NCBI GenBank assembly: GCA_021801565.1
Contig: JAJYXV010000015.1
Coordinates: 155,198 to 219,197 of the forward strand
DNA length: 64,000 nucleotides
Direction: 5' to 3'
Source: a bacterium
GTDB lineage: Bacteria > Patescibacteriota > Minisyncoccia > UBA6257 > GWB1-50-10
The translations under genes and the position numbers were made by a program. Numbering within the stretch: position 1 is the first letter of the stretch; each line of letters starts with the position of its first letter. Below are positions 61,264 to 63,038 of this stretch, piece after piece. Under the pieces are notes generated by a model. The model did no database searches, was not told the DNA's origin, and was given only the letters and a program-made list of their open reading frames with translations.

Positions 61264-62836
61264 TAGAGGATTTGATCCTGGTCCAGGATGAACGCTGGCG
61301 GCGTGGATAAGGCATGCAAGTCGAACGGATCTTGTGCGAAGCACAAGTACTGACAACCAACGACTAACAACTCATAACAAAAAACAAAAGAAAGTTTTCT
61401 TGTTGTAGGTTGTAGGTTATGTGTTGTTTGTTCTTGCGCTTTGTGCAAGGTTAGTGGCGAACGAGTTAGTAACACCTTGGTATGTACCCCAGAGTCAGGC
61501 ATAACGAGTCGAAAGATTCGCTAATTCCTGATAGTCTCGCAAGAGTAAAGACGCAAGTCGCTTTGGGATCGGCCTAGGCCCGATCAGCTAGTTGGTGAGG
61601 TAATAGCTCACCAAGGCTATGACCGGTAGGGGAGGTGAGAGCCTGTTCCCCAACGAGGAAACTGAGACACGGTTCCTACTCCTACGGGAGGCAGCAGTCA
61701 AGAACATTCGGCAATGGGCGAAAGCCTGACCGAGCGACGCCGCGTGTAGGATGAAGCATTTCGGTGTGTAAACTACTTTTCCATCGGAGAAAGTCGCAAG
61801 ACTGATAGTACGGTGGGAATAAGTGGCTGCAAACTTCGTGCCAGCAGCCGCGGTAATACGAAGGCCACAAGCGTTATCCGGATTTATTGGGCGTAAAGGG
61901 CGCGTAGGGGGTGCAGTAAGTCTGCGGTTAAATCTCTGAGCTCAACTCAGAAATCGCCGTAGAAACTACCGCACTAGAGGGTGTTAGAGGCAGATGGAAC
62001 GCACGGTGTAGGGGTGAAATCCGTTGATATCGTGCGGAACACCAAAGGCGAAGGCATTCTGCTGGGACACTCCTGACCCTGAGGCGCGAAAGCGTGGGGA
62101 GCAAAAAGGATTAGATACCCTTGTAGTCCACGCCCTAAACGATGCAGACTAGTTGTCTCGAGTATCGACCCTCGGGGTGGCGTAGCTAACGCGTTAAGTC
62201 AGCCGCCTGGGAAGTACGAGCGCAAGCTTAAAACTCAAAGGAATAGACGGGGACTCGCACAAGTGGTGGAGCATGTGGTTTAATTCGACGGTAAACGAGA
62301 CACCTCACCAGGGCTTGAAATGTACATGAAAATTTTCTGAAAGGAGAATCCTCCTCTTACGAGGACATGTGCACAGGTGCTGCATGGTTGCCGTCAGCTC
62401 GTGCCGTGAGGCGTTCCCTTAAGTGGGGTAACGAGCGCAACCCCTGTTCTCTGTTACAAGTGTCAGAGAAGACTGCCGTCGCATAGACGGAGGAAGGCGG
62501 GGATGACGTCAAATCAGCATGGCCCTTTGATGCCCTGGGCCACACACATGCTACAATGGTCAATACAATGGGTTGCCAAGCCGTAAGGCGGAGCTAATCC
62601 CATCAAAATTGGCCCCAGTTCAGATTGAGGGCTGCAACTCGCCCTCATGAAGTCGGAATCACTAGTAATCGCGGATCAGCATGCCGCGGTGAATACGTTC
62701 TCGAGTCCTGTACTCACCGCCCGTCAAGTCAGCGGAGCTGGGAATAGGTAAAAACTCCGTAAGGGGTTCAGCCTAAGCTCGGTGATGAGGACTAAGTCGT
62801 AACAAGGCACGGGTAGCGGAAGCTGCTCGTGGATCA
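61264..62836 (+). rRNA. rrs: 16S ribosomal RNA (expanded V1; 3' end ...GGATCAATTAAATT without CCUCC)
   Basis: AGAGGATTTGATCCTGGTCCAGGATGAACGCTGGCGGCGTG 5' end, CCTACGGGAGGCAGCAG, GTGCCAGCAGCCGCGGTAATAC, GGATTAGATACCC, GTCGTAACAAGG, h45 GGAA tetraloop. Confidence 0.95.
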
Positions 62837-63038
62837 ATTAAATTACGTCGATTGCAAGTCGTAAAAAGTGAGACGCTGAAACGTTGGCGAATCGCTGTTT
62901 ACGATTTGTGATACTTTTTTACAAATCAAGAAGGTCTGAGTCGAACCTTCTCCTCGAACTTCGAGGAATATAATTCGGCCGCGAAAATTAGGACAACTAA
63001 AAATGTTTGTTATAAATTCTATGTTTTTAAAATAGAAT

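Follow-up and report, generated by a model that had tools for sequence, protein, structure and literature searches.

In the textbook account, bacterial start sites are selected by pairing between the Shine–Dalgarno (SD) sequence and the anti-SD of 16S rRNA, and few rRNA segments are better conserved than the anti-SD. Jha et al. reportedly found in 2021 that Bacteroidetes ribosomes retain the anti-SD but have it occluded by bS21, bS18 and bS6, and Cortes et al. are said to have described Mycobacterium in 2013 as an example of bacteria rich in leaderless mRNAs. Loss of the sequence itself was recorded in 128 organisms, for the most part certain Bacteroidetes, Mycoplasma and Carsonella, that have no CCUCCU; such organisms generally have no SD motifs and no compensating variant pairs (Amin et al. 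2018, PMC6107228). Anti-SD-less organisms include Chryseobacterium, Elizabethkingia, Riemerella, Blattabacterium, some Mycoplasma and Candidatus Carsonella (Lim et al. 2012; PMC6107228), and mitochondrial small subunit (SSU) rRNA lacks the anti-SD as well, the mammalian 12S rRNA keeping helix 45 and GAUCA (PMC10582724). The anti-SD motif is found in only 48% of Parcubacteria, and the Parcubacteria without it overlap the group that lacks uL1; SD helices are presumably not formed there (Tsurumaki, Saito, Tomita & Kanai 2022, RNA 28:1041, PMC9297842). Here we analyse a stretch of 64,000 nucleotides (nt) of one such bacterium (contig JAJYXV010000015.1 of assembly GCA_021801565.1; the whole stretch is called the window below), in which the 16S rRNA gene has no anti-SD and the protein-coding genes show no enrichment of SD motifs.

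The window is a further member of the Parcubacteria subgroup for which anti-SD loss is already known (Tsurumaki et al. 2022, PMC9297842): the clade is the same and CCUCCU is likewise missing after helix 45. (The secE-nusG-rplK-rplA region is contained neither in the window nor in the fetched flanks.) That paper makes a brief remark on the loss, without the AUUAAAYU tail (Y is C or U), the SD statistics, the leaderless-type signal or the residual SD-like motifs described below. What may be new is the AUUAAAYU-type tail, the leaderless-type promoter signal and the conserved SD-like motifs without a visible partner, and only the last of these could become surprising. The losses in Bacteroidetes, Mycoplasma and Carsonella also combine a missing CCUCCU with genes not preceded by SD motifs, but they are independent and mostly shallow, whereas the loss in Paceibacteria/Parcubacteria is deep and covers a very large radiation. 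Bacteroidetes with a sequestered anti-SD resemble the window in their largely SD-independent initiation and A-rich upstream regions; they keep an occluded anti-SD, however, whereas the window 16S has none, though bS21 is still encoded. Leaderless-rich bacteria and mammalian mitochondria select starts without SD pairing, as is proposed here, but Actinobacteria have retained the anti-SD and initiate in both ways, unlike the window lineage, for which leaderless initiation is predicted from sequence.

A full-length 16S rRNA gene with a replaced 3' tail

The gene was aligned to the Rfam SSU_rRNA_bacteria covariance model (CM), and its 3' part was also re-aligned separately. The features are as follows (CPR, candidate phyla radiation).

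61260–62844, plus strand: 16S rRNA gene, full length, 1585 nt (Rfam RF00177, model positions 1–1533 of 1533, 1406.9 bits)
61339–61442, plus strand: 104-nt insertion in the 16S 5' domain (helix 6 region), typical of CPR (104 nt against 3 model positions in the CM alignment)
62808–62831, plus strand: helix 45, CACGGGUAGC-GGAA-GCUGCUCGUG, the GGAA loop carrying the KsgA target adenines (CM alignment)
62831–62836, plus strand: conserved GGAUCA (CM alignment)
62837–62844, plus strand: 3' tail, reading AUUAAAUU where the anti-SD CCUCCUUA is expected (aligned to model positions 1526–1533)

The anti-SD is absent from the sequence of this gene. The separate alignment of the 3' part gives the order GUCGUAACAAGG, helix 45, GGAUCA and then AUUAAAUU, and the tail is matched column-for-column to the model's CCUCCUUu with maximal posterior probability; no insertion between GGAUCA and the tail is called in this alignment. 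There is no CCTCC on the plus strand from 62350 (within the 16S gene) to 63303 (within the next coding sequence), which leaves ∼460 nt downstream of the tail without CCUCC on that strand. An earlier note on this DNA had read the gene as following the universal 3' minor domain through helix 45 and GGATCA and then ending in a tail that is not an anti-SD, with no CCTCC nearby. The CM alignment agrees, and the next downstream CCTCC on the plus strand is found only at 63303; neither an intervening sequence nor a downstream CCUCC, which that note had named as the evidence to look for against its reading, was recovered.

Helix 45 is complete, with 10 base pairs of which two are G-U, and compensatory changes are seen among relatives (CACGCGUAGC/GCUGUGCGUG, CACGGCUAGC/GCUGGUCGUG and CAUCCGUAGG/CCUGUGGAUG). 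Because helix 45 is intact and covaries, the gene is under selection and is not a pseudogene; it is a genuine, full-length and functional 16S gene, and probably the sole copy. The gene is also bracketed by a precursor-type stem (61105–61135 with 62983–63013), as it would be by a processing stem:

61105–61135, plus strand: 5' arm of a long-range precursor stem of RNase III type (inverted repeat I1, 31 nt, 94% complementary; cofold)
62845–62982, plus strand: precursor 3' trailer with two hairpins and no CCUCC, conserved in close relatives (alignment A1; cofold)
62983–63013, plus strand: 3' arm of the precursor stem (inverted repeat I1; cofold)
63044–63073, plus strand: terminator-like hairpin and T-run closing the rRNA transcription unit (sequence; inverted repeat I2)

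The next gene after the terminator-like hairpin encodes a response regulator; since no 23S gene follows, the 16S gene is unlinked from 23S.

Relatives and breadth of the loss

The same tail is found in six other independent assemblies, three of them GTDB genomes (L053, L074 and L093) and three Joint Genome Institute (JGI) metagenome contigs (L131–L133) recovered using the lineage-specific sequence of helices 44 and 45; it is identical (AUUAAAUU) in L053, L074 and L131–L133. The 16S identity to the window is ∼97% for L053 (Patescibacteria MAG033; MAG, metagenome-assembled genome) and L074, and 88% for L093 (a Candidatus Paceibacterota MAG). The trailer as well as the tail is common to the independent assemblies, with CCUCC in none, and all 3' ends observed in the same genus or family (7/7) are without an anti-SD. 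Judged by its sequence, the organism belongs to the Paceibacteria/Parcubacteria lineage of Patescibacteria. The best named SecA matches are to Paceibacterota, Jorgensenbacteria, Minisyncoccia and Parcubacteria, and other traits of the lineage in the window are a GC content of 37%, type IV pilin genes, the 104-nt 16S insertion and the separation of 16S from 23S.

The pattern GTCGTAACAAGG-N10-GGAA-N9-GGATCA plus two bases other than C was searched in GTDB, each species being represented by one genome. At least 120 species loci have two non-C bases after GGAUCA, and among the matches listed all but about two (a Cytophagales MAG and a gammaproteobacterial MAG) have a Patescibacteria-type helix 45. 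For example, the matches include Minisyncoccus archaeiphilus, whose tail is UUUAUUUA; it is described as the first member of Paceibacteria/Parcubacteria to be cultured, and the parts of its description available to us gave no rRNA copy number. The anti-SD-less 16S genes among the matches listed are down to ∼75% identical to that of the window, so that the loss is ancient; the lack of an anti-SD is an old trait that spans the clade. The commonest tails among the matches listed are AUUAAACU (23 loci), UUUAUUUU (10), AUUAAAUU (seven), AUUAUUUU (seven) and AUUCCAAU (six); AUUAAAYU occurs in 30 out of 120 other Patescibacteria loci among them. The replacement tails are short and A/U-rich, and past ∼8 nt the sequence diverges at once between lineages.

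SD usage in the window and in related loci

An SD core was defined as GGAG, GAGG or AGGA at positions −20 to −4, and the window set consists of 62 long non-overlapping open reading frames (ORFs). The results are listed with those for Escherichia coli and for ORFs of other anti-SD-less loci among the matches listed.

SD core, window genes: 5/62 (8%), against 8.2% in the intergenic background and 12.6% in random windows
SD core, E. coli ribosomal-protein region, annotated starts: 47/65 (72%)
SD core, E. coli, longest-ORF starts: 25/53 (47%)
SD core, 497 ORFs of other anti-SD-less loci: 10.5%
Mean duplex energy with ACCUCCUUA, window: −1.9 kcal/mol upstream of starts, −2.7 kcal/mol inside genes
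Mean duplex energy with ACCUCCUUA, E. coli: −6.5 kcal/mol upstream of starts, −2.1 kcal/mol inside genes

No SD enrichment is seen upstream of the window genes, either by core frequency or by duplex energy. The claim that most genes here have no SD therefore holds, at a frequency equal to background as against 72% in E. coli. The genes that had been named as examples proved to be ftsZ, secA, ddl, secD, rplU and hisS as stated, all with A/T-rich upstream regions. Normal SD enrichment, which would have spoken against it, was found neither in the window genes nor in the 497 related-locus ORFs. Of the 91 occurrences of CCTCC/GGAGG in the whole window (60 ± 7.5 in shuffles), 66 are plus-strand GGAGG; this excess on the plus (coding) strand is consistent with an absence of selection against internal SD-like sequences where there is no anti-SD.

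Start-proximal −10 boxes and a model for initiation

Ahead of the start codons, A is prevalent from −11 to −2, and 60% of the window genes have U at −1. Hexamers matching TAnWWT, with their first base at −14 to −11, number 18 among the 62 window genes, compared with zero to three per position elsewhere, and a looser −10 pattern has its box start at −15 to −10 in 21 out of 64 window genes. The 497 related-locus ORFs (among the matches listed) have 36 boxes at −12 against about six elsewhere. There is thus a positional −10 signal near the start codons. Examples of the boxes are gaTACAATagatatATG (gene 39359), gTACAATagagatATG (50697) and TATAATaaaaatATG (48123), the first of which is situated as follows.

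39345–39361, plus strand: leaderless-type arrangement of TACAAT, 6 nt and ATG (box-position histograms)

The TACAAT-type arrangement is likewise found at genes 50697, 53445, 48123, 2278 and others. In genomes, leaderless mRNAs are recognised by a −10 element that ends 6–7 nt upstream of the ATG, and the signal points to about a third of the genes being leaderless, as predicted from sequence. No relevant paper on leaderless initiation in Patescibacteria/CPR was found in the literature searched.

We propose that an ancestor of the Paceibacteria/Parcubacteria lineage swapped the anti-SD CCUCCUUA for a short A/U-rich tail (AUUAAAYU and variants). With the tail replaced, the ribosomes of the lineage would be unable to select start sites by SD:anti-SD pairing, and two other routes would serve. 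For roughly a third of the genes the route would be leaderless mRNAs, since a −10 box 6–7 nt before the ATG would place the transcription start at or next to the start codon; the remaining genes, and those internal to operons, would have A/U-rich leaders, presumed unstructured, with U preferred at −1. The new tail would not act as a replacement anti-SD. For this model as a whole, that is, a functional 16S rRNA without an anti-SD and SD-independent initiation through leaderless mRNAs and A/U-rich leaders, we estimate a probability of about 0.8.

Residual SD-like motifs

Five ORFs in the window are preceded by SD-like motifs.

56244–56252, plus strand: TAAGGAGGT, with 5 nt to the ATG of ORF 56258, a 275-amino-acid (aa) orphan gene (alignment A2)
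50200–50206, plus strand: AAGGAGA, with 6 nt to the ATG of ORF 50213 (54 aa, basic; SD-like motif in four lineages)
50379–50385, plus strand: AAGGAGA, with 8 nt to the ATG of ORF 50394 (77 aa)
31697–32026, minus strand: ORF preceded by AAGGAGA
15180–15587, minus strand: ORF preceded by AGGAG

None of the five (56258, 50213, 50394, 31697–32026 and 15180–15587) has a Pfam match. The near-perfect AAGGAGG that the earlier note had reported for three ORFs is present at ORF 56258 only; 50213 and 50394 have AAGGAGA. Across the 497 related-locus ORFs, SD 6-mers cluster 5–7 nt before the start (17 of 26 fall within 0–10 nt), and SD 7-mers are found at eight genes, compared with two in the reversed-sequence control. 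It appears that ∼3% of the genes in anti-SD-less Patescibacteria keep a functional-looking SD.

Two of the ORFs provide examples of conservation in relatives. The 275-aa orphan protein has only three homologue clusters (100%, 84% and 52% identity), all with the gene order yceG, small ORFs, pfkB, ..., fba, orphan, release-factor-like gene, SLT, L25, L31; its leader, which contains TAAGGAGGT, is nearly invariant over ∼95 nt though the proteins have diverged (52–84% identical). The leader also has a 17-bp perfect palindrome, ATACCATTAATACCAAG-N5-CTTGGTATTAATGGTAT (56193–56232), a possible operator or else an RNA hairpin that overlaps the promoter. The basic small ORF belongs to a conserved, very basic family of 52–60 aa located between yceG and pfkB, with the motif HRTxRIxRAxxKYxFKxR and no Pfam match, and always preceded by an SD-like motif. 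Its members are found at 50213–50377 of the window, 215–373 of L134, 453–674 of L135 and 6403–6585 of L137. The SD-like motif is kept in the four lineages with diverged flanks (AAAGGAGA, AAAGGAGG, AUAGGAGU and GUGAGGUG), and its register slides along UAAGGAGGUGA (AAGGAGA, AAGGAGG, AGGAGU and GAGGUG).

Two explanations of these motifs were rejected. The SD-bearing ORFs had been suggested to mark recently acquired DNA, which is contradicted by their ordinary GC and GC3 (GC at third codon positions; the exception is a low GC3 in the 54-aa ORF 50213), by conserved synteny in relatives with proteins 52–84% identical, and by the conservation of the SD-like motifs there. A trans-acting RNA carrying the anti-SD was sought in a 705-nt gene-free gap (42601–43305), which holds two conserved elements that resemble non-coding RNA (ncRNA) and contain CCUCC. 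In the first element CCUCC is within a terminator stem and is not conserved (UUCCCCC in L137); in the second it is paired internally and covaries.

Weighing the alternatives

The main claim of the earlier note, a 16S rRNA without an anti-SD serving genes without SD, is supported by the above, and its side hypotheses on the SD-bearing ORFs are not. Among the other ways to account for the 3' end, an assembly artefact (chimeric contig end) or pseudogene (decayed copy of rrs) might be suspected because some assemblies of the region break inside the 16S gene. It is refuted by the tail and trailer that independent assemblies share identically, and the full-length, high-scoring CM match, the compensatory changes of helix 45 across the clade and the 31-bp precursor stem bracketing the gene likewise leave it with practically no chance. 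The anti-SD could instead be displaced, by an intervening sequence after GGAUCA or in a long 3' extension reaching the pyrimidine tract CCUUCUCCUC (62944–62953): the precursor extends to ∼63013, and CUUCUCCU (62945–62952) is complementary to AGGAGAAG upstream of ORF 50394. But the CM calls no insertion, and the tract is not kept in close relatives (CCUUCUUCCC in L074, CCUUCUUCUC in L132) and lies within two predicted hairpins, one of which is altered in L074 (CCCGUAU...GCGGG) and still foldable. CCTCC occurs within 300 nt after GGATCA in only 14 out of 118 loci among the matches listed, at scattered positions, and the control word GGAGG is commoner there (30 out of 118), so that we regard a displaced anti-SD as scarcely credible. 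A tail that has itself become a replacement anti-SD, pairing ahead of starts with a motif rich in A and U (for example AAUUUAAU), would fit the A/U-rich upstream regions and the retention of AUUAAAYU across lineages with 16S ∼80% identical, where the sequence after the tail diverges at once. Words complementary to the tail are, however, enriched no more than other A/T words (the top enriched upstream words in the k-mer analysis, TAATA, TATAA and ATAAT, are −10-box words), the real tail pairs with upstream regions less strongly than shuffled tails do (duplex energy −0.15 kcal/mol as against −0.94 ± 0.30), and no variant SD/anti-SD pairs were found in 128 organisms (Amin et al., PMC6107228); we consider such a replacement highly improbable.

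CPR genomes are small and usually have one rrn copy, which argues against a second, divergent 16S gene that keeps the anti-SD and whose ribosomes translate the SD-bearing minority, giving two ribosome populations. The SD-like motifs conserved at canonical spacing, with a register that slides along UAAGGAGGUGA in four lineages, would be accounted for by such a gene, and there is a precedent in Alteromonas strains with two 16S tail types (Amin et al. 2018, PMC6107228). On the other side, all seven recovered 3' ends of the genus or family are without an anti-SD, the metagenome scan with the lineage-specific sequence of helices 44 and 45 gave no CCUCC version, and ∼92% of the genes have no SD. The second rRNA operon that the earlier note had considered is thus without evidence, and we think it very unlikely. 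Several points weigh against the proposed SD-independent initiation itself. About five of the 64 window genes, and ∼3% of those in related loci, have long SD-like motifs at canonical spacing, some of them conserved in diverged relatives, which an anti-SD-less ribosome does not explain. Gene starts were taken from the longest ORF, which blurs positional signals, and we infer the position of the mature 16S 3' end, the single rrs copy and the leaderless transcripts. It is possible, but in our view unlikely, that purifying selection maintains canonically spaced SD-like motifs at a few percent of the genes, which would imply a reader other than the tail. If so, candidate readers would be an unrecognised partner, either RNA or protein, or another, specialised population of ribosomes, and the motifs would form a gene-specific channel of initiation or regulation in ribosomes otherwise without SD pairing.

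Other features of the rRNA locus and of the window

The 104-nt insertion (61339–61442) is able to form a long hairpin, and L093 has it too. The 5' arm of the precursor stem contains the motif UUUUUAGUUGyCCyAAU (UUUUUAGUUGUCCCAAU), which is conserved in the clade (13 relatives) and kept in the leaders of L001, L045, L060, L077, L093, L104 and others, with 16S ∼80% identical; such conservation is unusual for a spacer helix. An imperfect copy of the 16S 5' terminus (AGAGGAUUUGAU...) is present in the leader 121 nt upstream of the true one (61129–61167 versus 61250–61288, 39 nt, 79% identical). In the cofold of leader and trailer, GAUUUGAUUG of this copy pairs with the 16S 3' tail CAAUUAAAUU (10 bp, z = −3.4). 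As a general feature this pairing was rejected, its energies across 23 related loci being no better than those of shuffles. Pairing of the tail with the 16S 5' end (GAUUUGAU) was rejected as well: the predicted covariation (C/U in the tail with G/A at position 11) is not seen, and lineages with A11 in 16S mostly have a C tail.

The 16S segment AAGUCGUAACAAG (62794–62806) recurs in the trailer, 62 nt further downstream, as AAGUCGUAAAAAG (62856–62868). The trailer start GUCGAUUGCAAGUCGU is conserved among relatives down to 88% 16S identity, and a GUCGA-like motif recurs after the tail, at variable distance, in many lineages. In many anti-SD-less lineages (L003, L008, L016, L029, L066, L116, L119 and others) a sequence like the 23S 5' end (GAUUAGUUCGCGAG or GUUGAAGUCUUAAA) is found ∼20–30 nt past the tail; if real, it would mean an extremely short 16S–23S spacer there, in contrast to the unlinked 16S of the window.

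Two genes of the window are associated with the 16S 3' end; bS21 sits beside the anti-SD in other bacteria.

11163–11393, plus strand: bS21 gene (Pfam PF01165, weak match; translation)
11835–12293, plus strand: ybeY gene, candidate nuclease for 16S 3'-end maturation (Pfam PF02130)

The first element of the gene-free gap is a candidate small RNA gene (42624–42765) with a TTGACA-16-TGnTATAAT promoter (12/12 matches), a structured stretch of ∼100 nt and, followed by a T-run, a strong intrinsic terminator (42735–42756); the gene is shared with L136 (87% conserved) and L137 (86%) and has no Rfam match. The second (∼43083–43228, ∼145 nt) is located upstream of secA, shows identities of 94% (L136) and 86.5% (L137), and also has no Rfam match; its internal ACCUCC/GGAGGU helix covaries (GACCUC/GAGGUC in L137). 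It may be an independent ncRNA, since a GIY-YIG gene lies between it and secA in L136. A release-factor gene (57142–57897, PCRF and RF-1 domains) encodes a form of 245–251 aa, compared with ∼360 aa for RF1/RF2, and the short form is also found in L134 (243 aa) and L135 (251 aa). The stop codons used in the window are TAA (44), TAG (15) and TGA (five).

Implications

A very large radiation without an anti-SD shows that bacterial translation is able to run entirely on other cues. For the Paceibacteria/Parcubacteria this has practical consequences: gene finders that use a model of the ribosome-binding site will misplace starts in their genomes, and rules that annotate the rRNA 3' end by CCUCC will mis-annotate such 16S genes. 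Expression of CPR genes in other hosts, or of foreign genes in CPR, needs different 5' ends.

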